Below, one piece after another: positions 3,455 through 64,000 of a DNA stretch of 64,000 nucleotides. The stretch is taken from positions 1 to 64,000 of the forward strand of contig WELA01001243.1 of NCBI GenBank assembly GCA_009602735.1, in the 5' to 3' direction. This DNA comes from Mesotaenium endlicherianum. Its lineage: Eukaryota. The translations under genes were made by a program, and so were the position numbers. The notes beneath the pieces are model-generated. The model was not told the origin of the DNA. It did no database searches and saw only the letters and a program-made list of their open reading frames with translations. How positions within the stretch are numbered: the stretch's first letter is position 1; every line of letters starts with the position of its first letter.

Positions 3455-3721
3455 CCTGCACATGTAACCAGGGCACAAGTTAGTAGGATATGGACCTTTG
3501 TCATAGGGATTGCAGGAAGTATGTTAGTATTTAGTATAGTGGCTTCGCTGCTGTTTACCTTACAGGATGATTGCTAAAAGTTGACGTAGTTGCGATGCGC
3601 TACACATAAACGTATGAGTGTGTTTTTATCGCTCTCGCTCACTAACTGTCATATATTTTCCCCTCCAACTTAAATGGAGACAGGACCGCCTGTCACCTTC
3701 CCGTGTCAACTGAAATGACAG

Positions 3722-33368: not shown

Positions 33369-33429
<61 letters not shown>

Positions 33430-33466
33430 CGCGCGCGCGTGTCTGTGCACGTGTGCGCACGAGCAA

Positions 33467-33498
<32 letters not shown>

Positions 33499-36400: not shown

Positions 36401-36550
36401 GGAATTATGATATGCAACATTCTTGTAACTCAATTTGACTGCCAGAATGTGCAACCTGATGGCTCATTGCCACTGACTTTATTGGGAGGAGAGCAAAAAA
36501 TATGGGTAGCTTCTAGTTCCCCTGCAGGTGTAACAGGCAAAGCCGATTGA
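32669..36550 (+). CDS. Secreted alpha-amylase, GH13 fungal/Taka-amylase type, copy 2 (tandem paralog, 7 exons)
   Basis: [12 protein letters not shown] signal peptide; same motifs and same intron positions as copy 1 ([20 protein letters not shown]). Confidence 0.92.
33370..33513. repeat. (GT)n compound microsatellite in amylase 2 intron 1
   Basis: Long GT runs with GC and GTGGGT interruptions. Confidence 0.92.
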
Positions 36551-43177: not shown

Positions 43178-43934
43178 AACATGTGCATATGTGGTGGGGA
43201 ACAAGCATGTGCCAATTTGCGCTTTTGTGTTGCTTGCATGGGTGCACGCGTGCATGCAAGCATTTACACATGGTATATCCATAATAAGGTGTCAAGGACG
43301 TGTAAAAGCATAGAAAGATAATGAAAGTGTACGCTCAACCACATGCTTGGGTCTGTGGATGCATGCGTGTATGCGAACAAGCATTTGTATTACGCATGCA
43401 TGTGCAATTTTAGCGTACGGCATGTGGACGCGTATAGTATGTATGAAAGGGCAAAGGCGGCCAAGAAATGATGTTTGCACGCGAATGCACAGCAATTACG
43501 CCAAGAAGCTGGTTTTGACTCGCGCAACGCATTTAAATCAACCTACATGAAGAAAGTAGCCAGTTTGCACGTATCGGTACCTTGTATTCATAACCACGCA
43601 TGCAGTATGATGCCCGCAAGCATGATGCACTCAAGCATGAATTAAGGCAAGGCAAGTATTATTTAAATTTTCTGCTAAGTCTTAGGATGAGCAGATGGTG
43701 AGAGCTGGGTGAAGGAGAACATTGCTCTGAGTGTTGGTCATGGTTGCATGGTGCAAGTTCAGGAGCCCGGGGATGGGTAAACCTTGGTAAGGATTGTCAC
43801 CGACACACGTGCAAAGGTCGATCGACCATGTTTGCCCACACGTGAGGAGGGCCACCGACACATCGACCAGGTCGAAGGCACACATGCTGGAAGGCTATGC
43901 ACGTGCCAAGGGACCGACACTGTTAGGCACGACA
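43178..43934 (+). repeat. Left terminal-repeat blocks of family B (block A 43178-43638, block B 43639-43934)
   Basis: Block B matches 63424-63718; block A (43178-43460) matches 63718-64000. Confidence 0.85.
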
Positions 43935-44441
43935 GCTGTCGCGGCTACTATCCGTTTGACGGTGCCGCACGCGCAGCGCAAGCTACGGCCACCCAGGTTC
44001 GGAAAGTCAACGTTGACTCACCGACCACTTGACTGATTACGTCGCAGTCAGCGGTTATGTCGGCGTCAAGACCACTGGCAAGGGGTCAATGTCAATGTGC
44101 CCCACACCCGGGGATGGGGGAGGTTTTGACAACATAGACAGCCGCGAGGCTAGAAGCTGGGGATCAGTGATGAGCCGCCCAGCAGGTACCAAGTCAGGTA
44201 CTATGTGACTGGCAGATTAAGCCAGGTCATGGCCGCAATGCCAAGATAGGTTACGGCCGCCCGGTTGGGAATCTTGAGCAAGTGGCATTTGCTTGTACAC
44301 GCCGCTCAGGAGTTCTTAGCCATGAGCCAATTAGGCGTGACTGCCAGCTGAGAAGCTAAGCAGCCACGCGCGGCAGTCACGAGGTGTGCATGCATGCCAA
44401 GTGACTACGAGTTTGAGTTGGGCATGGCTAGGCAGAAGCGA

Positions 44442-45160
44442 TGTAATGAATCAGTATATTGGTTGATATAATATTCATTTAAATATAACAGTTAAATAAG
44501 TTCAGCCTGCTGAACTCTAGTTAAGAATCAGTCTGCTGGACTTTATATTTAATATCAGTTTAATGACTCAGCCGAAAGCAGCAGGCTGAAGTCAGCTTAA
44601 GCCAGCTTGCTGACACATTCTTTGACAGCCAGCTGACTTCCGTACTCGGTAGCAGCGAACTGCCTCGATATGCATCTAAGTGTGGTATGCTAGATGAATG
44701 GCCACATGACATCCCTATGATGGATGGCGATTTGGGATGATGGGAGATGGCGGTGGATTTGGTTAACCGAGGTCCTACCAACGTGGTTAACTCTCGGGTA
44801 GGCGGTGCCATCGCACTGGCCGTTGAACAGTAAACTCATTCCATGTACATATGCTAGGCATTGCTCTCGAGTTCGGCATTTGGAAACGAGGCCAACTCTC
44901 TTGTACAGCTAACTGAGAGAGAACTGAATCCAAGGCGAGAAGCCATTGATACGCACTGTCTTCTAACCTTGCTTATGTATGAGTTTACCGATTGCATTAT
45001 TGATGCTAGTTTACTCGCATTTGATTTACGAGTATTGTTCACTGCTAGTGTGTTGTCCTTTGCCGTTTAATCAGTTAACGGAAATACCATAAAGATTACT
45101 TGCTGATATAAAGATCTTTATTAATTGTAAATCGTCTATTTGGTAAGTCGATTCATTTCA
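44442..45160 (+). mobile_element. Solo LTR of family A
   Basis: TGTAATGAA...TTCATTTCA flanked by the 5-bp TSD AGCGA (44437-44441, 45161-45165). Confidence 0.96.
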
Positions 45161-46035
45161 AGCGACATGCAGCTAAGCTTTGTGACTAAGCACGGCATTC
45201 TCGAAAGATGACGTTGCGTGGTGCCTGCGGAAGGCACGAATCTTGCCTGAGACATGTCATTCACTCTCACGCACTTTTGCCAAGAAGCAGAAGGAGCAGA
45301 AGGAGAAGAAGGAAGGAGAAGAAGGGCGCGAAGAAGAAGAAGGAGTTCCCAAGGTCATTGGAGAGCCGAGGCCCCACGCTTCTGCCGACGCTGAAGATTC
45401 TTCTCAGTGTATCATAGATAAGTCAGGATTGTAGGAGTTCCCAAGAGGGAATCTCACTGTTGAAAGCAGGAGAACTGCAGAATAGAATCTGCTAAAAGAT
45501 TAGCACAGATTCGGCCGAACGCCACAAGTGTGTGAAGTAGCCTTAAAATGGTGAGTTGTGTGTTAGTTTCCAAGTTCTCAAAAGTCGCATTCGCATCTCG
45601 AAGACAGAAGAGTAGTATTGGCAGATAAAGCCCTTGGTGAAGAACTGAGTGAGCCTAGCCTGGCAGTGAAGAGCTGTTAAGGCGCGGTGTTAAGTGAAGA
45701 GCTTGACCCAAGCCAGCATAGACGTGTAGTTTCAGAGCTTTGTAAGCTGTGACTGTGAAAGTTAAGCGAAAGCTTGAAGGGCAATTTTCTCTGAATCAGA
45801 CGTTGTATGTCAAGCTGCTTAGAGTGTGATTTCTGCAAACTACAATTTGCTCGCCTGTGAACCCAAAAACCTTTGGGCATAAAACTTATGTGGAAGTAAC
45901 AGACTTCCGTCCTACTCCTGAGAACTTAGGTTCTGTGGTTCAAGTGAATAGAAATTCAAAGCAAATTGGGGATTGAGGCTTGTGAGGGCTGCCGGTGCTC
46001 AACCTGGAAGGGGACTCGGAGAAATTTAACTGTAC

Positions 46036-48560
46036 ATGCAGTTGAGGAGTGGAAGACTCTACTACCCTGTGGAGCCTATGGAAGGTTCTGATTCAAGCCA
46101 GAGTCCACGAGGAAGTGAGACATTTCAGCGCACGGATAACCTGTGGAGTGAGCAACCGTCGGAAGACGAGTCTCGCCATACTGCCACGAACGGTGAGAAT
46201 ACGTATAATGCGCAAGCTTTTGTACCCAATTTGGGCAGAGAGCACGACGTGTGGGGTAAAGTCAGTGAGTCTTGGTCGCCATTCGAAATGACTGGTGTTG
46301 ATAAAGATGAAAATCCTAAGTTCAAGCTGTCTACAAAGTGTTTTAGTGGACGAACCGGTGGAAATAGTCTCACTTTCGAAAAGTTTGATGAGATCTATTG
46401 GGCTGATTTCTTTGAGAGAATCCAAAAGGATTCTTCTTACACTCAATCAGTTGCTTTTATCAGCTTGGTTCAGTATTTGGACAAGGATGCCTTGTTGCTT
46501 TTTCGCCAATTCCGGAAGGATGAGAACTTTACCCAGGAATGGGCGTTTGACGAGCAAAAGAAGGCAGGGGATTTAAAAATCCAGAAAGAGGCTGCGAAAG
46601 CCCGCCTGTCCGCTTTGTCATCAGGAAGAGCGATACCTGCGGCACCTGTTGAGAGTGTAGACTTAGCTGCACTAACACAAGAATTAACCGATGCCATGAG
46701 GCAACTCACCGAGGGTCAGCAGCGAGCGGCTACTCGAGATGATGAATCTGGATCTGTCGCAGAATTGCGTAAAGTGTGTGCAGAATTGTCTGAAAAGATT
46801 GCTAATGCTCAGGAACGAGTAACGTGCAGGGCTGCACCTTTACAGGCCAGCATGGTGATAGTGCCACCACGGAAGCAAGCCATGCGCAAGCGTTGGCTAG
46901 TTGCCGTAGGGATATGGAGGCTGGGGATGACCAGTTAGACTCTGAGCACTGTCTGCGTCGTTTCTTTAAGTTGCTTGAAGCAAAATTCCTAGAGGATCGC
47001 AGTCTTAAGGAGCATCGTTATGTGCATTTTATCCGTCAGAAGAACGAGACAGTGATGGAGGTCAAATCCAGATTGGTAGACCTTGCCAAGAAGGCAAGAA
47101 TCTATGAGCCTAGGATTGTGGCTGACAAATTCTTATTGTGCCTGGGTAAAGACACAGATCGGGAGGTCAGGCCGCACCTATCTGCGAAACGCGGAATCGA
47201 CTGGAACATCGACGAGGCTCCTGAAAAAGCACGCAATGTCGAGGAAGGTAAAGTCTGGTACAAGGAGGCGTCCACGACGCTTATGGCTCCTGAGAGAAGG
47301 GAGGAATCCTTTCAACCTAAGGCCAATAGCTCTAATTTTCAATTTAAAAGGAAGAGCGGATCTTTCAATAGGTTTGCTAAGCAAGCCAACACTGCTGAGA
47401 CAGCAGAGGGCTGTTGGAATTGCGGGAAATCGGGACATCAGAAGAGAGATTGTCCGTACCCGGATGCTAAGCAATTGTCTGCTAGCAAGGCGCAGGTATG
47501 CGCATATTGCAGCAAGAAGGGACATTCAGAAGATGAGCGTTGGTCTAAGAACCCAAATCTGAAGCCACCATGGGCTAATGTTGCCACGAAAGAGGCAGAT
47601 AAGGGTAAGAGAAAGGAGAAAGATAACTCTGGTAACCGAAAGGGTAACCAGAAGTATGATGCTATGAGTGCAGAGATTGCAGAGTTGAAAGCTCAAATTG
47701 CAAGACTAAATGTGCTTAATGTCTATTATGATGCAGATGTGGCCGAAAAGACCGTCTGCAAAGGCGAGAAGCTGACGCTTGAGAAGGCCGTGGCTGCAAC
47801 GGCTGCGGAGCGCGTAGATCATGACCGTCTGGTTCCAAGGAATGCTGGGAAGCTTCCTCAGACCTTTCAGATCACTCTCGATGAGAACGAGATTGCGCAG
47901 CTACGACAAGCCAAGCCTGGGCCACGCAAGACATTTAGTTTTTCGCTGGAGAAGCTGAAGGCTCTGGTGGAACACCGGATTCAGCACATTCCTTGCCTTT
48001 CACTCGTTGATCTGCATCTTACGTATCCTTTCACGGTTGAAGAAGCCGGACAGCAGCTGGACATAGCTGAGAAAGGCGCAAACAGCGCTTCGTTGCCTAC
48101 TAATTTCAACACTGTGAGAGTGCAGAACAAGGATAGAGTCTTGACGTTCAACGACTGGGCCGCTCCCAATATCCTATTGGACACTGGCGCACAGCCAATA
48201 ATCTTGGGAAAGCAAGCTGTGAAAGCTCTGGGATTGACGGCAAGGGACCTGAAAGAAAGTCCTTTTCAGTTGAGGACTGCATCTGGGCAGTTTTAAAAGT
48301 CTTGTGGAATTACCCGCAAGCCTGTGAAAATCACAGTAAACTTGGAGATACCTGAGGAGGCGTCCCTGCTCATAGAATGCACGGTGACAGAGGCAGAGAA
48401 CTATGATGTTCTCTTGGTGACAGAAGCTCTGATTCCCCTGGGTATGGTCATCGACCTGCGGAAGCAGAGTGTGACTTACCAGTCAACAGATCGGCAGCCG
48501 ACAGGAGAAATTCCTGTAAAAATGGTTTGCTCGGGAGAGGCGAACTACGGACTGCTAGAC
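46036..48560 (+). pseudogene. gag: Family B gag-protease region (one frameshift near 46.8-46.9 kb, in-frame stop at 48294-48296)
   Basis: MQLRSGR start; QKNETV; zinc knuckles CWNCGKSGHQKRDC and CAYCSKKGHSEDER; protease ILLDTGAQ..YDVLL. ORFs 46824 and 48324 share a frame across one TAA. Confidence 0.85.
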
Positions 48561-48827
48561 TGTTGTGTGAATGACCGGTATCAAGACCATTATGACCTCA
48601 TCATGCAACGCGAAGAGGAGGGCTACACCAGCGTCAACATGCCGACTCCCTTGGTTTGGCAACCTCGAATTATAGAGCAATTGGAAGCTGTGAGTAACAG
48701 GGACCGTGGCCCGCAAGAGCTGCTGCCAGTTCCTTATCCAGTTAAGACTGCTGCCAATTTGATGCCTGGAGTAGACCCGCTGCCGCAAGGCATTGTGAGG
48801 ATGGAAGATCCTTTTCGCAGGAGAGAA

Positions 48828-49790
48828 GTAGTAGTGCTGGAATTGTTTGCCGGACTTGGTTCTGGAACCATCGCACTGATTCAGCGAGGTATCCGGGTAT
48901 CCAAAGTGCTGTATGTGGACAATGATGAAAGTGCGTTCACAGCATTTAAGGAGGTCATGAGTCAGATGCGGCAAATGCATCATTTCAAGGCGCCGGTGCC
49001 TACTGACTCTAGTTTGGTGCGTCTTGCTGGAGGAAACATTCTCGATGTGAACTCTGAGGACCTGTATGGTTACAGGATTGACTGGATCTTTGCGGGATTC
49101 CCTTGTCAACCTTTCTCGCAAGCTGGGAACAGGAGGGGATTCAATGACCCGCGAGCACAACACTGGAGATGGATGGTGAAAATCATCAGCATGCTGCGGG
49201 AACGCCAGCATCTCTACCCACCAGTGTTTGTGATTGAGAATGTACATCCAAGTATGGATTACAACCAAATGAAGCCAGGAGATCCATGGCTGGTCTTTGA
49301 CTCCACCCTTGGACATCATGTATTGATCAACGATGCCAGGCACGGAGGACTCTCACACCGGGCCAGACTATCTGGACCAACGGGATGTCCATTGAAATCC
49401 TGAGGGAGATGGAGGAGATCACGCGGTGCTCACCAACAGCAGTATCTGTGGGAGAAGCACTGAAAGTGGACACCAAGCCAGTGATTAGGAGGGATTCCTA
49501 CACACAGTACGTCGTCAACGAGCCAGGCCGGCCAAGGGTGGTGCTGCCCACCTTCACGGCATACCCAAGATCACGCGCATTCATAAATGGAGGACCAAGA
49601 ATGGTTAAGAATGCGCACGACAGAGAAGCTCAGTGGAGAGAGCCGACAACTGAAGAGAAGGGAAGGTGCTTGGGGGTACCCAACTCCATTGCACAAGAAA
49701 TTGGTGCGATGGTGGGACAGGACGACGCTGGGAAGATATTCGGCAATATGATTGGGCATCACTCCATGACGTGGTTGGTGGAGACAATTA
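48828..49790 (+). pseudogene. C5 DNA cytosine methyltransferase domain (DNMT3/DRM-like motifs) within the family B polyprotein; 1-nt frameshift at ~49371
   Basis: Motif I VLELFAGLG; II YVDND; III GNILDV; IV FAGFPCQPFSQAG; V GFNDPR; VI FVIENV; VIII DARHGGLSHRARLxWTN; IX EPTTEEKGRCLGVP; X IFGN. Confidence 0.92.
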
Positions 49791-49839
49791 TAACTTGGCA
49801 GCAGATGACATTCTCTGACAAGCCTATGCCCAGGCCGAG

Positions 49840-50342
49840 TGTAGTGAAACAGATAGATAAAGTACTTAGTAAAACAGAATACTTTATCTATTCAAGACAA
49901 GGATCTTTGAACACAAGTGGTAGCTTCTTGAAAGAGAGATGGCTTCTTGAAAGTTAATATATTTCTGGATTTTGGCAAGTACAAGAGTGATTCTGGAATG
50001 TCTTTCTATGTTCTAGCTCTTGTTTATATACTTGCTACATAAGTAATTTCTAGGAAGGTGTATGTTGATGTGTTGGCACCCAACACATCCCAAAACTTGC
50101 CACCTCTTTCTAGAATAATGTACACATGTCCTTTTGACCTAAAAATGGCACATCTGACTTTTGCCACATGGAGTTCTTCTAGGTCTTTCCTCTAACTTCG
50201 AAAATGCCTTGGAAGGTACAAAGGACATGAACCAAGTTACTAGAATACCTATTCACACTTGACTCCACACAATACCACTCCAAATATATTTGAAAACATT
50301 AAAATATATGCATACTAATATATAATAACTCAAATCACTACA
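49840..50342. mobile_element. 503-bp solo LTR of a third family
   Basis: AT-rich block with terminal inverted repeats TGTAGTGA / TCACTACA and 5-bp TSD CCGAG (49835-49839, 50343-50347). Excision restores the host reading frame. Confidence 0.88.
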
Positions 50343-50347
50343 CCGAG

Positions 50348-52130
50348 ACCAGTTACGATTGGAGTCCATGTAGTGCCAATCTCCGATCGGAGAGCTATCA
50401 GGGAAGCGCATCAGCGACAAGAAGAATATGGTGTTGAAAGGGACGTAGCTGAGGCTGACCAAGGTGAAGCACTCAGAGAAACCAGAGTTGCGGAGCTGAC
50501 CAGGTGTCAAGACCTACTGGCGCGAATTGACAATCGGATGGCGGCTCTACACGACCCTCTGGAAAGAGAGCTGCGAAGGCAGCGAGAAGACGTAGCCATG
50601 GAAGACCAGGCAACTAGTGAAGCAAACCCTTTGGCGAGCGCTGCAGCAAGCAAATCACAGGAGGTCCCATTATCTGCAGAACGCGCCAGCCAAATATTTG
50701 TAAGGATGCCGAAATGGGAGGAAGAGACCACTTCTGAGTTACGGAACATGGCCCAAGACCAGGTCTTCGGAGGCTCATCCCCACACGCGGCAACGTCAAG
50801 GTATGAAGGACGCCAGTGCAATATTGGCAAATGGGCTGAAGAATGCAGTCAGAATTCAGGAAATTCTGGAGAGTCTGGAAAGACCATTTGCCTGAAGGTG
50901 ATCTTTGAAGAACGCAGGAAGGAGACGGTTGAGATTGCCCGCCACACCTGTTCTGATGAGCCCAGAGCTAGAGGCCAAAGGGCAACCACAAGACACAGTT
51001 GGCAGCACAGCTGAGTCAATCACCAGGCAAATCATGGAGCAGTTGCTGGAAGCAGACGCCCCTCGACTCAAGGAAGAGAAAGTGGCAAAAGCAGCTCGCG
51101 CTCTACTGTCAGCCATCATCAACATGGCGAGGCTCAACACAGGTTGGGATGAAGAATCGCCGCCTCTTATAACAGAGAAGCCGGAGGAGGGAGAGGATGC
51201 AAAGATGCAAGGCCTCTCAGAGTTTGAGTTGCCATCACTCAATAATGGAGGGGACTTTAGGGAAGAAATTCCACGTTTTCCCACGCCAGCGTTGGATCTG
51301 CTTGACTTGCAGGAGCTGAGGACAGACGACTGGGTAGCTGACCACCTGATGGGGCCAAGCCCGGCAGACCCTTATGAAGAACTAAGGTCACCAACATCCA
51401 GTACCCCTACTGCCAGTCTTTCAGTGGCAGAGCCCAAGTCAATCGCACGACCGCCGAATCGGCAGGAGGTGACTGCCTGCAGTGCTAAAGTGGAGACGGC
51501 GCAAGGTAAGCCCAAGGGTCGCGCAAGCAGACCAAGGAAGGTGGCCCGTGAGGGTAACGCATCTTTTAGGAGGATGCTAAAGCGACATTTCAAGCATAAG
51601 GGGAAGGCTCAGAGAGAGGGCCTTCCGCGAGGAACCACAGCCCCACCTCCTCCGCCTCTGCGGGATATTTTGCAGAGAGAGGGAGAGGACGGCTTGATTC
51701 GCAGGGCAATGGCATTGGGCATTAGTGTGCCGCCAGGCATTAACATGCCCTTGTTGCAACTATCAAATCTTAGGATGCAAAGGCTGGAGGCACCTGCTCC
51801 CATGATACATGCAATTCCAGAATGGAAACTGGTGGATCTGGGAAACACCATCAGCCGCTTGACCGCAGCAGATGATGCTTTCCTCGCACAACTAGCGGCA
51901 CCTCAAAGGCCGCAAACGTTGGCACAGGCATGGATGGTCACACCACCCGCGAGGGAGGAGTATAGTACGACCGTCGCCCGCATGGCTATTATTGAGCAAA
52001 AGTGGGGCTGGGTAATCAGCCCTAGGACAGATCATGCAGGTTGGCCAGTGGCAAACCAGCCACGGCCACGTGACGAAGAAGGAACCGGGACCAATTGGAC
52101 GGCAGTCGACGAGGAAATGTTCTTGAGGCA
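50348..52130 (+). pseudogene. Unknown ~590-aa segment of the family B polyprotein between MTase and RT (one frameshift near 50.9-51.0 kb)
   Basis: In frame with the MTase C-terminus once the solo LTR is removed; ORFs 50373-51014 and 50905-52155; no motif recognised. Confidence 0.6.
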
Positions 52131-52910
52131 ACCCAGTCTGACTTGGGCCGCATAAGCTCAGTCAGACAGAGTGGGAGTGTGTGGAGAAAACTTGCGAAGA
52201 GCTGCATAAGCTCCGCACGATTGAAAAATCTACCTCAGTGAAAACAGAAGATCGAGGTAAGACAGCCTTCTGGGCTCAAAGGGAACATTGGCAATGAACA
52301 GTAATGCCATTTGGGCTGAAAAATGCCCCAGCCATATTTTAGAGGACTATGGATAAAGTGCTGGAGGGGCTGGATTTTGCTAAGCCATACATTGACGATG
52401 TGGTAGTATTCAGCAAGTCCATAGAGGAGCACCTCGAGCACTTGGAACAAGTGTTCCAGCGTTTGGAGAAATTCCACATGAAGCTGCATCCTGGGAAGTG
52501 CAGATTCTTTGAGGCACACGTGCCTTACCTAGGACATGAGATTGGGAATAATGCTATGTCCCCTCAGGCTGTGAAGACTGAGGCTATTTACAAGATACCT
52601 GCACCTGCAAATATGTCTAAGCTGAAAGCTCTGTTAGGCCTAAGCGGATACTATCGTAAGTTTGTAAAGGATTATAGCAGAATTGCTAAACCCCTGACGG
52701 AAGTCCTTAAAAAGGATGTGCTTTTTGTGTGGACAGAAGCTCAGGAGAAAGCCATGAACGAGCTTAAGGAGCGGCTGGTAACAGCCCTAGTCTTGCAAAC
52801 GTTTGACTACTCCAAGCCGTTCAATCTGCACACCGACTGGAGTCGTGTGGGAATTGGCGCAGTACTCACTCAGGCCGCAAGCCCTAGAGAGGAGTATGTC
52901 ATTGCCTATG
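52130..52910 (+). pseudogene. pol: Family B reverse transcriptase / RNase H N-part, with stops and an internal deletion
   Basis: PHKLSQTE..IEKSTS|VKTEDRGKTAFW..MPFGLKNAP..YIDD..GLSGYYRKF..HTDWS..EYVIAY. Confidence 0.9.
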
Positions 52911-53622
52911 TGTAATGAATCAGTATATTAGTGGATATAATATTCATTTAAATATAATAGTTAATTAAGTTCAGCCTGCTAAACTTCAGTCAATAGTCAG
53001 TCTGCTGGACTTTACCTAATTATCAGTTTAATGACTCAGCCAGAAGCAGCAGGCTGAAGTCCATATAAGTCAGCTTGCTGACCCATTCTTTGACAGCCAG
53101 CTGACTTCCGTACTCGGTAGCAGCAAACTGCCTTGACATACACCTAAGCACGATATGCTAGATGAATGGCCAGATGACATCCCTATGATGGATGGCGATT
53201 CGGGATGATGGGAGATGGCGGTGGATTTGGTTAACCGAGGTCCTACCAACGTGGTTAACTCCCGGGTAGGCAGTGCCATCGCACTGACCGTTGAACAGTA
53301 AACTCATTCCATGTACATATGCTAGGCATTGCTCTCGAGTTCGGCATTCGGAAACGAGGCCAACTCTCTTGTACAGCTTACTGAGAGAGATCTGAATCCA
53401 AGGCGAGAAGCCATTGATACGCACTGTCTTCTAACATTGCTTATGTATGAGTTTACTGATTTGCATCATTGATGCTAGTTTACTCTCATTTGACTTACGA
53501 GTATTATTCCCTGCTAGTGTATTGTCCTTTGCCGTTTAACCAGTTATACCATAAAGATTACTTGCTGATATAAAGATATTTTTTAATTGTTAATCGCCTA
53601 TTTGGTAAGTCGATTCATTTCA
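52911..53622 (+). repeat. Family A 5' LTR
   Basis: TGTAATGAA...TTCATTTCA followed by the PBS. Confidence 0.95.
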
Positions 53623-53656
53623 GTGGTATCGAAGCAGTTTTCACAGTCTTCTTTGC

Positions 53657-55135
53657 ATGGTAAGAACAAGGTCTCAAACTAGCAACTCCCGAGACATGGA
53701 GAACCAGGATAACGAGAATGTCAAAAACCAGGCGGAAAGCCATGTAGCGGGAACCCGTACCTATTCTGAAGCAGTAGCCGATACTGCAGCTAGGGAGGCT
53801 GCAGATGAGGCAGCGGCTATTACCGCAGTCGCAGCTCAGCAAGCTGAGGAGGAGATAGCCAGACTAGAAGCTGAACAAGTAGCAAAGGCCGCTGAATATA
53901 TACAAAGGAGGGAAGGACAGCCAGCTGACGAGCGCACTGTTGAAGAACTTATGGCATCAAGGGCCAATGTTCTGAACCCACCTCCTGCCGTACAACTCAA
54001 TGTACCCCTAGGTCAAATACGTGACCGGCTGAATGCGGCAGGAATTGCTGCTGCAGGAGCAAGAGGGATTGTTGAGGACACTACTCAGCGAGTAGATGCC
54101 AATGCTGCTGCTGCATTTGCTAATCTACCACCCCAAAATGTAGACTTGGGAGCATTGTTCGTTCAGATGCAGTCGCAAATGGCGACCATGTATCAGTCCC
54201 AGCAGGAGGACAAAAGAATCATAATGTCCCTACTCCGGGACAGAGACCAACTGGGGTCTCACACCACTAGTGGTGGTGGCCGAGGGCCTAGTAAGCCCAA
54301 GCCGAAACCTCCCCAGGACTATGATCCTGAGGGAAACAGAAAATATTACCTGATCAAGTTTCTCGCGGATGTTGAGCAGTGGCTGGAGAACTACCCAGAA
54401 CTGCAAGATTACGAGAAGGTCAGGCACACCGGTGCGCTACTGAAAGGCAGTGCCGCAGACTGGTGGCTTTACTGGAGGGAAGAGCGTAAGGCTCGGGAAC
54501 TCGGTGACCCTACGTGGGTAGAGTTTGTCGAGAAGTTGCATGAGAAGTTTGATGTCATCAACCAGCAGGAGAAAGCTATCTATGCGATGATCTCCCTGAC
54601 ACTGAAGCAGACCACTTCAGTTGCTGAGTTTGCTCAAAAGTTCCAAGAGAACATGATGAAGCAGCCTGATTTGCCAGAACGGTATAGGATAGCATACTTC
54701 AGGTATGGCTTGAAATCCGAGGTCTCTGGTCATTTTGCTGAGAAAAAGTATGAGAAACTGGCTGACTTGATCCAGGATGCTGACGCCTGGGATCAGCAGC
54801 AGTTCAATCACAAGCGCCAGAGTAACGCTTTGGTGTCTAAGATTGTCAAAAAGCCCCACGGTTCCTACAATGCAGTTGAAGGAGACCAGGCTGAGGATAA
54901 TCAGGGTGATGAATATGAGTATGAGTACAATGCTATTCAGTCTAGAGGTAGAGGTGGTCCCTCTCGAGGTGGCTATGGAAGGGGTGGTGGTAGGACTAAG
55001 CCGAGACCAGCCTCAGCAAAATCTACTTGCTACCATTGTCAGCAGAAAGGCCACTACAGAGAACAGTGTCCGGTCAAGCACCTGCCTAAGGTCGAGAGAA
55101 AAGACCAGCCTTTAAAAGACAGCAACAGTCAGTAA
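53657..55135 (+). CDS. gag: Gag (intact, 492 aa)
   Basis: Near-identical to 7507-8985; CCHC knuckle. Confidence 0.93.
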
Positions 55136-58100
55136 TCCAGTCTACTGACTGTGAGGATGCTAGAGATAGTGAGTCGTCACTAGCTGCCCTCGTAGCAGGT
55201 ATTATGGGTCCTGCTGAACTGGATTCACTATGCATGCCTGACAAACAGATAAAGGAGACCATCAGTAATATAGACGTCCAGAGAGTGCACACTCTGGATG
55301 CTCTTGTTCCACCTGATGTCCAACATTTCTTTGCTACGTCAGGAGAACAATGCGAAAGTCAGGAAAAGACAGTCCCCCCTATCCTACTGCATTGCATGAT
55401 TGCAGGTAGGAAGGTGAGGGCATTTGTTGACGGAGGGGCGTCACATACTTTTATCCACAAGGACTTAGTTAAGCGGCTAAGGCTGCCTACTGTCACCCAA
55501 GGGAATAGAAAAATATTCCTTGGAGATGCCTCAAGTATCCCGGGAGGAGTTATAACCAAGCCTATTGAGGTCCAGTTAGGTTCTGGCATTGCAGTTCTAA
55601 CTGAAACGCTTACATTTGAGGTACTCAACACTGGCTTTTATGATCTCGTGCTAGGCAGGTCCTGGCTTAATAGACATCAAGCTGAAGTGTGTTGGAGCAG
55701 AGGTACAGTTAAAGTGAGAGGAGCCAGTGATGGGCAAACTGACTTGGCACCCACCAGTGCTCTTCCTCTTGTCCTGTGTGGATGGCAAATGAAGGAGAAG
55801 AAGAGGCTTCCAGAAGGATGCAAGTTGCTGACTGCAATGGAGTTCGTCAAAAGCTGGAACCAGAAGGAAGACAGAATGTTCTGTCTGCTGCTAAGAGAGG
55901 TACCTCCACAACCTGGAGAAGTGGTTGAGAAAAAGGTACACCCTCCGGAGCACCCTACTGCTGCAAACATTGTTGCTCAGTACACGGATGTGTTTAATAT
56001 GCCTCCAGGACTACCCCCTAAGCGGGAAGTAGATCATAGGATTGATCTATTACCTGGTAGCCAGCCACCCTGGCAACGCACGTATGGCTTGTCTTATTTG
56101 GAGAGTGAGGAGTTGAAAACACAGATTGCAGAGCTGGAGGAAAATGGTTACATTTCTCCCAGTAAATCACCGTACGGCGCACCTATCCTATTTGTTAAGA
56201 AAAAGGATGGCAGTATGCGGATGTGTGTGGATTACAGAGCCCTGAACAGAATTACAGTAAAGAACAAGTATGCTTTACCCAGAATCGAGGACTTGCTTGA
56301 CACCCTGTCTGGCGCTTAAGTGTTCAGTAAGATAGATCTCAAGAGTGGTTATCATCAAATCAGAATTGCTGAGGGGGATGAAAACAAGACTGCTTTCCGC
56401 ACACGTTATGGACACTATGAGTTCATGCCATTTGGACTGACTAATGCTCCTGCTACCTTCATGGGTGCTATGAATGACATTTTTAGACCTTATTTGGATA
56501 AGTTTGTGCAAGTTTTCCTGGATAATATTTTAATTTTCTCTAAAGATGAAGCTCAGCACACTGAACACTTAAAAACAGTCCTGGACACTCTGCGTAAAAA
56601 TCACTTATATACTAAAATGAGCAAGTGTGATTACTTTAAGGAAAGTATTGAATTCTTAGGCCACGTTGTCAGTAAGGAGGGCATCAGTGTGGATCCTAAG
56701 AAAGTCCAGATCATAAGGGACTGGCCAGTACCACAGTCTGTCTCTGAAGTTAGATCCTTCCTCGGGTTGGCTAACTACTATAGGAGATTTATTGAGAATT
56801 ATTCCACAAAGGCCAGTAAACTGACTGACCTTACTAAGAAAGACATCGGGTATGTGTGGGGGGAAGAGCAGCAGGCTGCCTTCCAGACCCTTAAAGATGC
56901 CCTTTGTTCTGCCCCAGTGCTAGCCGTGTATGACTCCAGCAAACCGGTGCAGGTGGTTACTGATGCCTCTGACTTTGCCATGGGTGCTATTTTGTTGCAG
57001 CCTGCTGACAAAACCACAAAGGATGGTAAGGTACGGCAGGAGTGGCATCCTGTGNNNNNNNNNNNNCTGTATGAGTCTATGAAATTTAANCTAGCGGAGA
57101 TTAATACTCAGTGCATGATAAAGAGCTGCTAGCTATCATTCATGTACTCAAACAGTGGAGAGCATACTTACATGGTAAAGCTTTTAAGGTGATTACAGAT
57201 CATCTAGCTCTGACCCACTTTCAGAAGAAGTCCAAGCTGTCGAGGAGGGAGAACCGCTGGAGCCAGATGCTGGAGCAGTTCCAAGTCCAGATCGACTACA
57301 AACCAGGGAAGTTGAATCCTGCTGATGCACTCTCTAGAAGACCTGACTTGCAAGAAAGGAACTTTAGTCAGCATGCTGTAGATAAAGTCCTGTGTGCACT
57401 CACTTCACTAAAGGTGAAAAAGTCCTTCCTTGAACAACTTAGGAAAGCCTACCTTTCTGACCCAACATTTGAGCCCAGCCCCACTACTGGTGTGTGTCGT
57501 GCTACTGCACTCGGGTATAAGCTTAAGGGAGGGGTCTGGGTGACTGAAACCACTTCAGGCAGGCTGAAGCTGGTCATTCCTAATAACTTGGAAATAAGGT
57601 CTCTCTTACTGAGTCAAGCTCATGCCAGTCTCCTGGGTGGACATTTGGGGCAGGCCAAAACTGTTGGCAAACTGGCAAAACATTATCATTGGGAGGGGTT
57701 ACCCCGGGAGGTCTTGAAATATGTCAAGTCCTGTGACCAGTGTCAGAGAAATAAGTCTCGGCACACACCACCTGGAGGTCTCTTGCAACCGCTGCCCATC
57801 CCAGCTGGACGCTGGGAAACTATATCCATGGACTGGGTGGTCTCACCACCAAGAACTGCCAACGGGCATGATTCCAAACTGGTAGTCATGGATAAACTGA
57901 CAAAAATGGTCATTTTTATCCCCACAACTGTCAAAGTGACTGCACTCGAAACAGCGAGACAGTTTTACAACCATGTAGTATGCCAACATGGGCTCCCTTC
58001 TAATATCATCTCAGACAGAGACTCAAAATTCACCTCTAAGTTCTGGAGAGCTTTAATGGGGTTAATGGGAGTCAAACAGCTGCTCAGCACAGCAAACCAC

Positions 58101-58925
58101 CCTCAGACTGATGGGCAGACTGAAAGAACTAACCGAGTTCTGCAAGAGGTGCTGAGAGCATATATTAACCAAAAACAAGATAATTGGGATGACCTGTTGC
58201 CTCAAATTCAGTTTGCGGTCAACAGTGCGGTGCACGCGTCAACGGGCAAAACTCCTTTTGAACTCAGCCTGGGTAGAGTCCCTAAGTCTCCTCTAGATGT
58301 GCTAGGGGAATCTTTAACTCACCCTGAAGGGATTGACAACCCGGTCTCCCTCCAGTTAACTCAGGAGTTTGCCGACACCATGTCAGAAGTCCAACGCAAC
58401 TTGCAAACGGCCCAACAAAACCAACAAAAATACGCTACTCAACACCGTCGGGAACTGACATTTTCCAAGGGGGATTTAGTCAAACTGCATTCTCAGCACC
58501 TGTACCTCCCTGGTGTGGTCAAGAAAAAGCTTGGCCCTGTCTGGGTCGGTCCGTATTCGGTGGTCCGTCGTGTCGGTCAGAATGCTTACAAACTGAACAT
58601 GTCAGCTGAATACAAGGGGCACCCGGTCTTTAATGTCTCCTTCCTGGAACCGTACATCAAAGGTGATACACTGTTCACAGGTCGGTTCCCTGTCCAACCG
58701 GGACCTGTCCCCGCTGTCCGGGACGGCGACCCTGAGGAATATGAGGTCGATGAGATTTTAGACGCTCGCTCGGTCCGTCGATCGTCTAAATATGTCATGA
58801 AATACCTCATTCGATGGAAGGGTTACGATGCCTCTGGGGACACTTGGGAGTTTAAGGACCACTTGACCAATGCCAAAGGGGCGTTGACACGGTTCCACCT
58901 TCGGGCCGCTGGAGTCCCTCCATAA
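55090..58925 (+). pseudogene. pol: Pol of the nested family A copy, disrupted
   Basis: Stop at 56317-56319, FLDD changed to FLDN, 6-nt deletion in RT, and a frameshift near 57105 (next to Ns, so possibly an assembly error). Chromodomain intact. Confidence 0.88.
55111..55152 (+). promoter_or_regulatory. -1 frameshift signal (second copy)
   Basis: TTTAAAA at 55111-55117; stem 55125-55134 / 55143-55152. Confidence 0.8.
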
Positions 58926-59409
58926 CTGTCATTTCAGTTGACACGGGAAGGTGACAGGCGGTCCTGTCTCCATTTAAGTTGGAGGGGAAAATATATGACA
59001 GTTAGTGAGCGAGAGCGATAAAAGAACAGTTACGTGAACCCTAAGTGTCAGCATAGTGACAGAGGGGACAGCCTGGCCCACATAAAGCACCTTGAGCTGA
59101 AGGAAAAAGGGCCTCGCATAACACTACATCACTTAACTCACCCTAAAACACACTCATACGTTTATGTGTAGCGCATCCCAACTACGTCAACTTTTAGCAA
59201 TCATCCTGGAAGGTAAACAGCAGCGAAGCCACTATACTAATACTAACATACTTCCTGCAATCCCTATGACAAAGTTCCGTATCCTACTAACTTGTGCCCT
59301 GGTTACATGTGCAGGATGGCGCCCACCACACAAAAGGTAACATACTTCCTGCAATCCCTATGACAAAGTTCCATATCCTACTAACTTGTGCCCTGGTTAC
59401 ATGTGCTGG

Positions 59410-61086
59410 ATGGCGCCCACCACACAAAAGGAGGACAGAAAGCGCAAGGCAGAAGAAGCCAGGAGGACTATGGAACAATACCAGAAGGAGCTGGCGGCGA
59501 CGTCCCTCACCAGGAGAGAACAAGAAAGGGTCCGCAAACAACAAGAGGCGGCAGAAGAGGCACAGAGGAAGAAGGATCAGGAAGCGAAAAACCTCAGGAA
59601 AGTTGAGGAGGAGAGACAGAAGAAACAGCAAGAAGAAGCGGCAGCGGCAGAAGAGGAGAAAAGGAAAAAGCTTGAAGCGGACAGACAGAAGAGCTTGGCC
59701 ACTTACAGGTATACTGTGGTGGGTGGCCAGAACTTTGATAACCTGAAGGAAGCATTGCTGGCAGCCCAGGAGATCAACAGGCTGGAACAGACAACACTGC
59801 TACAGAAGGAAGGAGCTACAGCACTGGACAGGTACATCGAGACACACACCGGCGTGGTCCTTTACGAAGATTATGCTAAGATGGTGGGCTATACAGCAGA
59901 GCAGGCCCGGTATCTCGCAGATGATTCAGAGGACAAGCCGGTCCCCATACCGGGAATAGTGGGAGATCAGAGACTCATCCGGATGGTGAGCATGCGGCCC
60001 GATAGCTTTAAGGATACGGTATTCTACCTCACACTCCTGCCAGCTTACAATGAAGTTGAGAGAAGGAGCTGGGAGTACTTGGCCAGGGAAGCAGGACAGC
60101 AGATGTTCTCTCCCCACTGGTTCCCGTGTAAACTGAGGAAGGCTGAGCACGGACCCCAGTACTACCAGCAGCCAACAGACTGGAGGTGGATGACCGTCAC
60201 AAATAAGAAGCAGGAGTGTGACCGAGCCCAACCGGATGACTTCCACTATGGCCTAGACGGCTATCTCATCCTACCACCTCACATTGCCCCTTGGGACCCC
60301 AGGCTGAATGGATGCCTGAGCAATATGAATGCAGAGACCAAGGAACATAGGAGGAGGGGAAGAGAGTACTTCTCTAAGGGAAAGCATGCCTTTGTCAAAT
60401 GGGCAAAGAATGCAGGCCGGATAGATATCAGTAGGCTGAAGGCCAAGCAACCTCCAGCGCGCCCTAAGAAAGGGAGGTCGGTAGACTACTCCATGTCTAC
60501 TAGGGAGCAGGACGACTTAGTGGACGAGACCCCTACTCTCTCCGAGGAGGAGGATGAGGAGGATGAGGAAGAAGAACAAGGCAGAGGAGAAGCATCAGCA
60601 GCAGGTACTCAGGATACCCAGGGACAGGCAGTGGCACTTCCTAAAGAACCACGATCAGGTGTGTGGAATGTGATCCCCGTTATGGCGACAACTGGACCCC
60701 GCGCTCGCTCCCCCAGCCCACCTGCCCAAGCAGGGGAAGAAGCTGATCTGACTGTACTGGGCAGCAGACACAGACAGAAATCCCCAGAGGACAGGGGTGC
60801 CAGAAGAGGGACACGCGGGTGGGCCAGAGGTATGCCAGCCTCCCCCTCCGCTCAGGGGCATGTACCTCTAGCCAATGTATTTCAGCATCCTACTGGAATG
60901 CCTGTCTATGTGGGAATCAACACCCAAGTGGTTGAAGAGCAGGCCACCATCCACCGTTCTCCTCGAGGGCCAACTTTAGAGCAAACAGGGTCCTTTAGAA
61001 GGCCAGCTGACAGACCTAGAGGGCTGTCCAGATCTAGGTCCAGATCTCCGTCTCCTGACCCTGAAGCCCCAGGAACAACCCCTTAA
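59410..61086 (+). CDS. Extra ORF (ORF3) of family A, second copy, intact
   Basis: Same length as 1778-3478 with only a handful of amino-acid changes. Confidence 0.78.
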   Translation: MAPTTQKEDRKRKAEEARRTMEQYQKELAATSLTRREQERVRKQQEAAEEAQRKKDQEAKNLRKVEEERQKKQQEEAAAAEEEKRKKLEADRQKSLATYRYTVVGGQNFDNLKEALLAAQEINRLEQTTLLQKEGATALDRYIETHTGVVLYEDYAKMVGYTAEQARYLADDSEDKPVPIPGIVGDQRLIRMVSMRPDSFKDTVFYLTLLPAYNEVERRSWEYLAREAGQQMFSPHWFPCKLRKAEHGPQYYQQPTDWRWMTVTNKKQECDRAQPDDFHYGLDGYLILPPHIAPWDPRLNGCLSNMNAETKEHRRRGREYFSKGKHAFVKWAKNAGRIDISRLKAKQPPARPKKGRSVDYSMSTREQDDLVDETPTLSEEEDEEDEEEEQGRGEASAAGTQDTQGQAVALPKEPRSGVWNVIPVMATTGPRARSPSPPAQAGEEADLTVLGSRHRQKSPEDRGARRGTRGWARGMPASPSAQGHVPLANVFQHPTGMPVYVGINTQVVEEQATIHRSPRGPTLEQTGSFRRPADRPRGLSRSRSRSPSPDPEAPGTTP

Positions 61087-61199
61087 GGTGACACGCTGAA
61101 GAGGCAGTCAGTAAGGGAGGCTGGTCAGGTTCAGTTCCCTTATTTAAAATTTCTGCAGTTTAATGTTGTCGAGGCGACAACAAGTTAAGTTGGAGGGAT

Positions 61200-61919
61200 T
61201 GTAATGAATCAGTATATTAGTGGATATAATATTCATTTAAATATAATAGTTAATTACGTTCAGCCTGCTGAACTTCAGTCAATAGTCAATCTGCTGGACT
61301 TTACATAATTATCAGTTTATTGACTCAGCCGAAAGCAGCAGGCTGAAGTCCATATAAGTCAGCTTGCTGACCCATTCTTTGACAGCCAGCTGACTTCCAT
61401 AATCGGTAGCAGCAAACTGCCTTGACATACACCTAAGCACGATATGCTAGATTGAATGGCAAGATGACATCCCTATGATGGATGGCGATTCGGGATGATG
61501 GGAGATGGCGGTGGATTTGGTTAACCGAGGTCCTACCAACGTGGTTAACTCCCGGGTAGGCGGTGCCATCGCACTGACCGTTGAACAGTAAACTCATTCC
61601 ATGTACATATGCTAGGCATTGCTCTTGAGTTCGGCATTCGGAAACGAGGCCAACTCTCTTGTACAGCTTACTGAGAGAGATCTGAATCCAAGGCGAGAAG
61701 CCATTGATACGCACTGTCTTCTAACCTTGCTTATGTATGAGTTTACTGATTTGCATCATTGATGCTAGTTTACTCGCATTTGACTTACGAGTATTATTCC
61801 CTGCTAGTGTATTGTCCTTTGCCGTTTAACCAGTTAACGGAAATACCATAAAGATTACTTGCTGATATAAAGATCTTTATTACTTGTTAATTGCCTATTT
61901 GGTAAGTCGATTCATTTCA
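61200..61919 (+). repeat. Family A 3' LTR
   Basis: After the PPT; TG...CA; followed by TSD CTATG. Confidence 0.95.
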
Positions 61920-63368
61920 CTATGCCTCACGTTCTAACAATCGAGCGGAGAGCAACTACTCGTCCTACGAAGGAGAGCTGCTGGCAGTGGTTTGGGCTGT
62001 CACACACTTCAAGGAGTATCTGTGGGGAAGACCCTTCACGCTGATCACGGATCACTCACCATTACTATGGCTGATGAAAAATGGAGACCTCACTGGTAAG
62101 TTGGCTCGCTGGGCTCTTAAGCTGCAGGAGTACCAAATGACGGTGGTGCACAGAGCAGGAGTGCTCAACAACGACGCCAATGGACTCAGCAGGAACCCAG
62201 ACCCATCTTCAGACGACAGAACAGGAGCTCGAGAGGACGAAGACCCGAGCAGCCCAGCAGAGTTGGTGGCCTGCCTAGCCGAAATGGCTGGAATGGTAGC
62301 ATCAGGCGAAGCTGAGCCACGACCCCTGTTCACTCCAGAGATCTGGAAAGATCAAGCTACTATGCACTGGCTGAAGACGGTAACTCACTTGGAAGGGCTA
62401 TCAGTGAAGGAGAAGAACCAGGTTAGCCATCGAGCTAAAAGGTTCTGCTGGAAACGCAACAACCTCTTCAATATTAAAGAAACTGGTAAGGAGAAGTTAG
62501 TGCCAGAATCCATCAGGAGACGAGTTCTTGTGCAGGAAATGCACGAGAACACTGGACACTATGGTGTCAAGATGACGTATGGTCTTTTGGAGCTGTCTTA
62601 CTGGTGGAGGGGCATGAAGGAGCAGTATGAAGATGTGATCAAGGCCTGCCAAAGCTGTGATAGCGTCAAGGCTGGTTTTACGCAGCAACATCCACACTTG
62701 CAATATTTGCCAATCATGGGCCTAGACTACTGCTGGAGCTGCGATCTCGCAGATTTAGCAAGCAGGCTGCCTTGGCGAATTACTCGCCAAATCAAATAAT
62801 GTTTGGCAGAAGTCCAATAGTGCCCAGCAGTATCAAGCAAGAGATTGAACAGGTGAAAGACCTGGACAGCCCTGATGAACTGCTAAAGGTGATGGAACGC
62901 CGTAAGGCGTTATTTGAGCGCATAATGCCGGTTGCGCTGGACAATCTGAAAATCGTGCAGAAAAGAGATACGCATCGTCACACCAGGACGCGAGACGGGA
63001 GCTACCGCCTGTAGTTGACGCAGATTCAAGAAGGAGACTTCGTCTACCGCAAGCGCCAATGGTTCAACAATGGTGTGTTAAAGCAGGAAGGTTTTGATGG
63101 TAAAACCATGAGAGACCACGTGCAGAATTGCTCGCTATGCCATTTGCCGAATATTGATCCTACGCTTAGGGTTGTGCCCGAGAAATTGGTGCCAGCCACG
63201 CCTTGTGCCAGCTGCAAAGTGCTGAATGATCAAGAAGCAATAATAACTTGCGATAAGTGTGGTGCCCGTTGGCACACTTTCTGCATTGGCGAGGAAGAGA
63301 TTATGGCAGGACATTGGGAATGTCCTGACTACCTTTCTAAACCCCCTAGCCGCAGGGCTGGAAAATAA
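61920..63368 (+). pseudogene. pol: Family B RNase H C-part, integrase (catalytic core largely deleted) and C-terminal PHD finger
   Basis: ELLAVVWAVTHF..FTLITDH..LARWALKLQEY; HENTGHYG..YWWRGM..CQSC; WSCDLA|..YSPNQIMFGRSP; CASC..ITCDKCGARWHTFCI..WECPDY. Confidence 0.88.
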
Positions 63369-63415
63369 TAGCTTTTTGCAAAAAAGGCAGGGACGCCTCA
63401 GCTGAAAGGGAGGGG

Positions 63416-64000
63416 TGTAAGAGGAATTAAGGCAAGGCAAGTATTATTTAAATTTTCTGCTAAGTCTTAGAATGAGCAGATGGTGAGAGCTGGGTGAAGG
63501 AGAACATTGCTATGAGTGTTGGTCATGGTTGCATGGTGCAAGTTCAGGAGCCCAGGGATGGGTTAACCTTGGTAAGGCTTGTCATCGACACACGTGCAAA
63601 GGTCAATCGACCATGTTTGCCCACACGTGAGGAGGGCCACCGACACATCGACCAGGTCGAAGGCACACGTGCTGGAAGGCTACGCACGTGCTAAGGGACC
63701 GACACTTTAGGCACGACAACATGTGCATATGTGGTGGGGAACAAGCTTGTGCCAATTTGCGCTTTTGTGTTGCTTGCATGGGTGCACGCGTGCATGCAAG
63801 CATTTACACATGGTATATCCATAATAAGGTGTCAAGGACGTGTAAGAGCATAGAAAGATAATGAAAGTGTACGCTCAACCACATGCTTGGGTCTGTGGGT
63901 GCATGCGTGAATGCGAGCAAGCATTTGTGTTATGCATGCATGTGCAATTTTAGCGTGCGGCATGTGGGCGCGTATCGTATGTATGAAAGTGCAAAGGTGG
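63416..64000 (+). repeat. Start of the family B 3' LTR (block B then block A), truncated by the window
   Basis: TGTAAGAG directly after the PPT, then matches to 43639-43934 and 43178-43460. Confidence 0.82.

Follow-up and report, generated by a model that had tools for sequence, protein, structure and literature searches.

A cytosine methyltransferase of the DNMT3 type has been described in the Gypsy retrotransposon KnitGypsy-Dnmt3 of Klebsormidium nitens, where the domain lies in the Pol frame of an element with DIRS-like repeats (de Mendoza et al. 2018, PMC5890265). According to the available part of that paper, the methyltransferase (DNMT) is under purifying selection across the genome copies (Ka/Ks under 0.2), and the K. 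nitens domain produced no methylation in yeast, a result which its authors call inconclusive. The same source reports de novo CG methylation in yeast for retrotransposon DNMT3s of Symbiodinium, and self-methylation of the cDNA is a hypothesis also of its authors. DNMT3 in retrotransposons of streptophytes and dinoflagellates is mentioned in the accessible sections of PMC12344493, and the accessible sections of a preprint on the EpiLTRs (bioRxiv 10.64898/2026.05.21.726589) describe these elements as distinct from 'streptophytes (Gypsy-DNMT3)'. For Chlamydomonas elements, integration guided by a PHD finger via histone tails has been proposed (PMC9940879, available portion). A term search in the accessible text of a plant LTR survey (PMC6317226) returned neither 'methyltransferase' nor 'PHD', and in the mostly non-subscription literature covered we found no report of a DNMT-Gypsy in Mesotaenium, Sphagnum or chlorophytes.

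The DNA analysed here, referred to as the window, is the whole stretch of 64,000 nucleotides. It contains what we read, at a rough probability of 0.7, as a decayed copy of a multicopy Mesotaenium Ty3/Gypsy family, in which a DNMT3-type enzyme is placed between protease (PR) and reverse transcriptase (RT) and likely methylates the family's own new cDNA. The features of the element and of the insertions within it are, in order of position:

43178..43943, + strand: left-hand repeats, ending in a terminus-to-terminus junction at 43928-43943 (self-BLAST)
44442..45160, + strand: solo LTR of the chromodomain family, in the 5' part of the element (5-bp duplication; 92% alike to 52911-53622)
46030..48140, + strand: Gag region with two zinc knuckles (zf-CCHC, E 8.3e-6; frame change at about 46840-46940)
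48141..48500, + strand: aspartic protease, DTG at 48180, split by the TAA at 48294-48296
48810..49372, + strand: C5-cytosine methyltransferase, motifs I-VIII (PF00145, family profile and predicted fold)
49373..49816, + strand: target-recognition region and motifs IX-X of the same methyltransferase domain, put out of frame with motifs I-VIII by a one-base frameshift near 49370
49840..50342, no strand assigned: 503-bp solo LTR of another family, 3' of the methyltransferase (TG...CA ends, 5-bp target duplication)
50348..52125, + strand: linker of about 625 codons between methyltransferase and RT (frameshift near 50930; covered by family contigs)
52126..52909, + strand: RT and start of RNase H (RVT_1, E 7.8e-12; RT_RNaseH_2, E 5e-17)
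52911..61919, + strand: nested full-length chromodomain Gypsy element, no DNMT (5-bp duplication; LTRs 97.5% alike; Pfam domains)
61921..63180, + strand: remaining RNase H and integrase (RT_RNaseH, E 3.4e-25; Integrase_H2C2, E 6.8e-14; tblastn with P0209, P0221 and P0212)
63204..63326, + strand: PHD finger, C-terminus of the polyprotein (PF00628, E 6.4e-5; 23.3 bits, just below the cut-off of 24)
63404..64000, + strand: purine tract (63404-63415) and right-hand repeats, which run past the end of the window

The element is composed, in this order, of Gag, zinc knuckles, protease, DNMT, a linker of about 625 codons, RT, RNase H (RH), integrase (IN), PHD finger, purine tract and repeats. Pfam and the alignment of relatives recover the Ty3/Gypsy order PR, RT, RH, IN with Gag upstream, and the DNMT is intronless within the Pol frame. 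An intact relative, P0209 (PR-DNMT-RT-RH-IN-PHD), is colinear with the window from 46953 to 63323, i.e. from Gag through the PHD finger: its Gag aligns at 46953-47564, its residues 662-767 align across the TAA in the protease (E 2e-10), where the Pfam matches are under the cut-off, and its residues 2131-2341 align through the PHD finger region. The second zinc knuckle was taken from the translation. The RT of the window is 48% identical to that of P0209 and carries a deletion near 52240 and stops from 52153 onward; contigs of the family show loose ends at 52130 and 52240, within this part. In the integrase core, about 128 codons are missing at 62751. The linker (50348-52125) has no match in Pfam or among the collected relatives, in which the corresponding segment measures 113-214 aa, so that it is three to five times longer here. 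Three insertions are nested in the element, every one flanked by a 5-bp target duplication; the largest, the chromodomain Gypsy element, interrupts the RNase H.

An earlier note, made from the letters of the window, had placed the methyltransferase inside the Gag-Pol of a Gypsy element, and the open frame common to the protease half and motifs I-VIII bears this out. The 503-bp insertion that it described 3' of the domain is now located at 49840-50342, including its target duplication, and its view of the copy as a pseudogene agrees with the frameshifts near 49370 and 50930, the TAA at 48294-48296, the stops from 52153 and the deletions near 52240 and at 62751. Its account of the domain content is right in naming a Gag-Pol with DNMT, but overlooked the PHD finger at the integrase end. 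Continuity of the frame toward RT after removal of the insertion, as stated there, holds for about 220 codons, followed by the frameshift near 50930, the stop at 52153 and the RT deletion near 52240.

Elsewhere in the window, an exon at 41621-41848 (- strand) encodes 76 aa identical to a sodium/metabolite cotransporter model labelled jgi/Mesen1, a label that stands for Mesotaenium endlicherianum (Zygnematophyceae), and a tandem pair of intron-rich alpha-amylase genes occupies 26611-36465 (PF00128, E 8e-17 for one exon; exons 72-83% alike). A search for tRNA genes in the window found none. In the chromodomain Gypsy family, Pol is followed by an additional open frame of 581 aa, which is intact in both copies, at 59341-61083 (+ strand) and 1781-3523 (- strand), and for which Pfam gave no credible match.

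The methyltransferase starts in an open frame without stop (48297-49403), which runs from the C-terminal protease half through a linker to motifs I-VIII. PF00145 matches motifs I-VIII with 67.1 bits (curated cut-off 22; E 2.4e-18), the outcome of a Pfam search proposed in the earlier note. The catalytic Cys codon is at 49104-49106, the Glu of the ENV motif at 49236, and HRAR closes the motif VIII part. A family profile built from 71 relatives, with the window sequence excluded, aligns with its positions 4-191 to 48810-49376 (117.8 bits) and with its positions 192-335 to 49361-49816 (69.0 bits). On the family alignment, motifs I, IV (PC), VI (ENV), VIII (RxR), IX and X follow in order, IX and X past the frameshift, and the order is linear (profile positions 4-335 consecutive), without a rearrangement of the DRM type. 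The C-terminal half (IX-X) by itself has no match in Pfam or the PDB; it is 25% identical over 139 aa to the K. nitens protein P0221 (E 7e-8). The domain retains the catalytic Cys and Glu, both Arg, the SAM-binding FxGxG and Asp, WTN and the LPT motif, and deviates at four near-invariant non-catalytic positions, which are known from the window copy alone. Judged from its letters, the domain is complete in extent though frameshifted near 49370, and the window copy yields no enzyme. Thus the canonical order of motifs I-VI, VIII, IX and X given in the earlier note stands; their single frame does not, as the target-recognition region and motifs IX-X lie in the next one. The run HRARLxWTN, presented there as continuous, spans the one-base frameshift, which had gone unmentioned. 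A single TAA does separate the methyltransferase frame from that of the zinc knuckles and the DTG protease (46806-48293), at 48294-48296 as described.

The class of the enzyme was assigned by profile and predicted fold. With the window DNMT sequence alone, a PDB search (15 sequences at E 0.01) retrieved M.HaeIII, M.HhaI and DNMT2 and no DNMT3. With a profile of 31 rows, made up of 29 relatives plus the two pieces of the window, DNMT3A ranked first (E 1e-24), then DNMT3B (2e-22), DNMT3C, DRM (2.5e-13), M.HhaI (1e-11) and DNMT2 (3e-7). The model of the relative P0027 (pLDDT 94) superimposes best on DNMT3B (Z 28.1, rmsd 2.7, 269 aligned) and DNMT3A (26.6), before M.MpeI (24.1) and M.HhaI (21.8); for the window motifs I-VIII, modelled with the help of the family alignment (pLDDT 88.8), the order is DNMT3B (Z 14.9, rmsd 2.4, 156 aligned), DNMT3A (14.7) and M.MpeI (12.4). 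By profile and predicted fold the domain is nearer to DNMT3A/B than to DRM, DNMT1/CMT, DNMT2 or bacterial enzymes, and the earlier description of it as DNMT3-like is upheld by the family profile and the two predicted folds; the window sequence on its own does not place DNMT3A/B first. Motif IV of the window DNMT resembles that of bacterial enzymes, and single-sequence searches bring up bacterial and phage methyltransferases. A word-based search of the DNMT alone against longer proteins gave seven bacterial-type matches (28-42% identity) and no relatives, an Atlas search returned generic PF00145 clusters only, and among metagenome contigs searched with the window DNMT, 292 pattern matches contained no confirmed close relative. 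The DNMT trees comprise retrotransposon DNMTs and short C5 enzymes, without cellular DNMT3. Two Prorocentrum DNMTs were tried as a DNMT3 outgroup and were unusable as such, because the tree places them among the short C5 enzymes.

Contigs from 4 of 24 listed sequencing runs (X1, X5, X7 and X11) were aligned to 45161-52910. Run X1 alone yielded 12,443 fitting contigs; 30 of 30 bins were covered in X1, X5 and X11, and 28 of 30 in X7. Summed depth in X1, which is depth and not copy number, was 25,673-35,388 in the DNMT bins vs 39,184-63,935 in Gag. At position 48295, within the TAA, a summed depth of 21,534 out of 21,715 differs from the window in X1, and in X5, X7 and X11 the entire depth does. 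The 503-bp insertion is skipped, together with its duplication over 508 bases, by contigs from X7, X11 and X1 (211, 93 and 24 bases, respectively, on the short side), and the inserted LTR itself reaches a depth of more than 1,000,000 in X1, vs about 28,000 alongside. An extra base at the frameshift near 49370 is present in the sole X7 contig that crosses the site and in one X1 contig (251 of 10,645 depth); the frameshift is therefore probably private to the window copy, on thinner evidence than the stop or the insertion. Contig pieces across the DNMT differ from the window by 4-5% of bases, and overlapping contigs of other copies continue from protease through DNMT into the linker. As these copies carry the domain without the TAA or the 503-bp insertion, the DNMT is a trait of the family, in keeping with the earlier note, and not a one-off capture. 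Near-identical copies were also seen under five organism labels (runs X1-X19), which may reflect one alga under several labels or mixed samples and is not evidence of transfer. We have very little doubt about what the domain is, where it sits in the polyprotein, that other copies carry it, that it is akin to DNMT3 and that its catalytic residues are intact.

The ends of the element are made up of split repeats. On the right, 63424-63718 is about 96% identical to 43639-43934, and 63718-64000 is about 96% identical to 43178-43460. Five relatives (L022, L031, L039, L040 and L066) have the arrangement A-coding-B-A-B, with TG...CA ends and target duplications of about 4 bp, which are perfect in L040 and L031 and have a single mismatch or are ambiguous in the remaining three. 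In the window the repeats are split and the junction is present, but a portion of B precedes A, and the right end is cut by the window edge. In the five relatives and at 43928-43943 of the window, the inner B-A junction unites both termini with a 2-base spacer. A pattern for this junction, composed after these sequences had been seen, occurs once in the window, in 0 of 100 shuffles, and in 14 of 60 relatives with at least 600 bases past the PHD finger. We infer from the shape of this junction that the integrase may cut a circular intermediate at the inner site.

Relatives were collected from the best 150 matches of a search of 1.84 billion representatives (732 matches at E 0.001, 22 at 1e-10); 37 of these 150 were scanned with Pfam, and a profile search contributed 41 further long proteins. 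With redundant rows included, the DNMT lies before RT in 14 of 75 proteins containing both domains and after it in 61. The former include K. nitens P0221 and P0036 and Closterium P0013, P0022 and P0061; a DNMT after RNase H is found in Scenedesmus sp. (P0198), Chlamydomonas eustigma (P0219) and Cymbomonas (P0223), and Mesostigma contributes the relative P0023. In addition, 80 metagenome loci, several of them duplicates, were chosen with two integrase patterns taken from an alignment of DNMT-carrying elements. The DNMT precedes RT in 28 of these and follows RNase H in 9; it is absent from 2 in which both slots can be seen, and in 41 the first slot is uncovered. Flanking genes connect 3 of the 5 loci that were looked up (L019:22740-23816, L066:19265-19654 and L039:26228-27052) to proteins of Sphagnum magellanicum or S. 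fallax, identical to them or clustering with them, so the DNMT-Gypsy family extends to a land plant; the element copies at these loci are decayed. A PHD finger accompanies the DNMT in most full-length relatives. In 50 of 89 related DNMTs, the Sphagnum type included, Glu replaces Pro before the catalytic Cys (GWECQ), vs the usual PC motif. A related DNMT also occurs in the very long proteins of the P0052 cluster (P0187, P0189 and P0191); P0052 has a PHD finger and a PCIF1-type domain and no RT match, and the cluster may represent another element type sharing the same DNMT.

The RT-RH tree was computed from 54 rows and 360 columns, with two chromoviruses as outgroup. It groups the window with the Sphagnum copies, L003, L033 and L074 (UFBoot 100), inside a clade of elements with the DNMT before RT that includes K. 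nitens P0221 (UFBoot 98; FastTree 0.88). The clade with the DNMT after RNase H has UFBoot 100, and both are joined at 79; P0124 and P0224 fall outside both. The trees omit the redundant P0160-P0171 (representatives kept), P0174, P0177, P0180, P0187, P0189, P0191 and partial or frame-broken domains, and the RT-RH tree also omits P0118. A single origin of the DNMT-carrying clade is suggested by this topology, and is unproven because the outgroup consists of two chromoviruses. L064 and L058 are sister elements within the after-RNase H clade, with a PHD finger and an empty DNMT slot, which suggests that the DNMT was lost in their lineage; L064 has an open frame of 2082 aa without DNMT. The existence of such close relatives shows the DNMT to be dispensable in some branches.

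Across 89 relatives, the catalytic Cys and the Glu of ENV are present in all 89, and each of the motif VIII arginines in 87. Between families, synonymous sites are saturated or nearly so, and DNMT and RT are similarly conserved (35-55% and 39-65% identity); invariance of the catalytic residues at this distance indicates long-term constraint on catalysis. Eleven Sphagnum-type copies show near-neutral substitution in DNMT, RT, integrase and protease alike (synonymous share 0.28-0.40 vs 0.31 expected under their transition bias), which makes that test uninformative on the DNMT. Median dN/dS values of 0.40 (DNMT) and 0.35 (RT) from 78 pairs of 13 low-GC loci were rejected as evidence of selection, because the locus set mixed two subfamilies and the main one is near neutral. 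The CpG observed/expected ratio is 0.47-0.72 in the element vs 0.42-0.43 in the adjoining DNMT-less chromovirus, i.e. there is no stronger depletion in the element, and ranges without pattern from 0.35 to 0.80 in 11 relatives with DNMT, compared with 0.49 and 0.71 in two without; these comparisons give no sign of self-methylation.

Ty3/Gypsy polyproteins are packaged with their RNA and cleaved by their own protease. In active copies of the Mesotaenium family, the protease would free the DNMT within the particle, beside RT and integrase, where the cDNA is made, a co-packaging that the earlier note had also proposed. The enzyme would use SAM for de novo cytosine methylation, most likely in CG context, a preference proposed because DNMT3 and the Symbiodinium retrotransposon DNMT3s act so. 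The PHD finger linked to the integrase could read histone tails and pick the integration site, as proposed for the Chlamydomonas elements, and the new copy would land already methylated, resembling host DNA or being damped from the start. By analogy with these systems, we give even odds to the cis role proper, i.e. that the element's DNMT methylates its own new copy; inactivity of the K. nitens domain in yeast, the lack of extra CpG loss and the relatives without DNMT speak against it.

The strongest alternative is that the Mesotaenium DNMT is relaxed or re-purposed, for DNA or SAM binding or for a new sequence preference, and has lost cDNA methylation. The window DNMT is 21-27% identical to 22 relatives, vs 38-56% for the RT part and the same relatives; dN between window and relatives is 0.90-1.18 for DNMT and 0.40-0.64 for RT, compared with 0.54-0.74 and 0.27-0.63 between L003 and the same loci. 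This is about twice the amino-acid change of the relatives at equal RT distance, but the RT comparison spans just about 102 codons of the window. The window also has a long branch in the DNMT tree (1.35), and as other copies are only 4-5% different from it here, decay of the window copy cannot explain the divergence of its DNMT. The unusually long linker 3' of the domain fits the same explanation, while the retention of the full catalytic and SAM-binding set and the confident model (pLDDT 88.8) argue against it, and we consider loss of cDNA methylation unlikely.

Somewhat less probable again is an activity mainly at or after integration, with the DNMT tethered by a PHD-integrase complex and methylating the target site, its flanks or other copies in trans. 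It would account for the PHD finger accompanying the DNMT in most full-length relatives and for the chlorophyte-type elements, which place the DNMT directly before the integrase (the 61 of 75 proteins counted above, redundant rows included). In the window element, however, the DNMT lies between protease and RT, distant from the integrase, and a PHD finger is also present in the DNMT-less L064 and L058 and, according to the accessible part of PMC9940879, in Chlamydomonas Gypsy-7a.

We regard as improbable a separate acquisition of the DNMT by the Mesotaenium family, or an exchange with another element, in place of inheritance together with RT. The two trees differ in a way that would fit such an event: RT-RH unites the window with the Sphagnum copies and L003 (UFBoot 100), whereas the DNMT branches basal to the family and apart from the DNMTs of those relatives. 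The basal placement is weakly supported (75), however, for a long branch, which tends to be attracted to the outgroup, and the DNMT occupies the same PR-RT slot as in every clade member and has family-specific motifs in both halves. Finally, a bacterial or host methyltransferase landed once in a dead copy, or an assembly artefact, for which the bacterial-like motif IV and the bacterial and phage matches of single-sequence searches might be cited, is refuted by the contigs of other copies that cross from protease through DNMT to linker, by the colinear P0209 and the same domain order in relatives from other species, and by the lack of a target duplication around the domain.

Methylation of the family's own new cDNA thus stays our preferred reading of the DNMT. 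For the wider group, we lean by a narrow measure towards KnitGypsy-Dnmt3 belonging, as a single branch, to an ancient Gypsy clade of the green lineage (Mesostigma, Klebsormidium, Zygnematophyceae, Sphagnum and chlorophytes), with a DNMT3 writer, an integrase-linked PHD reader and split terminal repeats, in which the DNMT moved once from before RT to after RNase H and was occasionally lost; within it, the Mesotaenium DNMT would be fast-evolving and may have changed its target. If this wider clade is real, a de novo DNMT and a histone reader have persisted in a retrotransposon lineage from roughly the time at which chlorophytes and streptophytes diverged, and where several DNMT3 copies are counted in a green genome, they should be interpreted as transposon cargo. 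What is new here is the wider range of the design and a test system: the host, an alga in culture whose lineage is sister to the land plants, has many copies at different stages of decay, and the open question of the 2018 paper, namely what a transposon gains from its own methyltransferase, may be addressed in it.

The earlier note had called retrotransposon DNMTs rare. This is not sustained, as the same design is published for K. nitens (PMC5890265) and relatives are common in green algae and Sphagnum; the Mesotaenium element is a divergent addition to the published KnitGypsy-Dnmt3 design. As far as the accessible text of PMC5890265 describes it, the K. nitens element likewise comes from a streptophyte alga and is a Gypsy whose Pol frame contains a DNMT3-type domain, both intronless and unrearranged. 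P0221, which by species and content we take to be one of the K. nitens copies of that paper, has the order PR-DNMT-RT-RH-IN and belongs to the same RT clade (UFBoot 98), the key catalytic residues are retained in the Mesotaenium DNMT, and the split A-coding-B-A-B repeats described there are those seen in the five relatives. The Mesotaenium element differs in its zygnematophyte host, in a DNMT that shares just 27-28% identity with the K. nitens proteins, in a linker of about 625 aa vs 189, and in repeats that start with part of B before A. Counted by contigs (12,443), its copies greatly outnumber the 33 DNMT genes listed for Klebsormidium in the accessible part of the peer-review file of PMC5890265. 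Its C-terminal PHD finger is unnamed for KnitGypsy-Dnmt3 in the available main text; P0221 is partial, and the two may not differ in this respect.

More distant are SymbioDIRS-Dnmt3 and SymbioLINE-Dnmt, which, in the available description (PMC5890265), also carry a cytosine methyltransferase in a retrotransposon frame, DNMT3-derived in the DIRS type, but belong to dinoflagellates and are DIRS elements with a tyrosine recombinase or LINEs, as opposed to Gypsy elements with a DDE integrase, and represent separate captures. The EpiLTRs of Euglena gracilis and Cymbomonas tetramitiformis share the combination of LTR element, DNMT and chromatin reader; by the accessible preprint text they differ in an adenine methyltransferase, a chromodomain and a DNMT sister to DNMT4, and a Pfam search of the frames of the Mesotaenium element found neither DAM nor chromodomain. 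Chlamydomonas Gypsy-7a_cRei resembles it in a Gypsy Gag-Pol with PHD finger and in LTRs made of sub-parts, but no methyltransferase is among the domains in the figure legend of PMC9940879. Cellular DNMT3 of Physcomitrium (PMC6453930), likened here by its description in the available part of the source, has the same unrearranged DNMT3-type catalytic domain, in a host gene outside any polyprotein.
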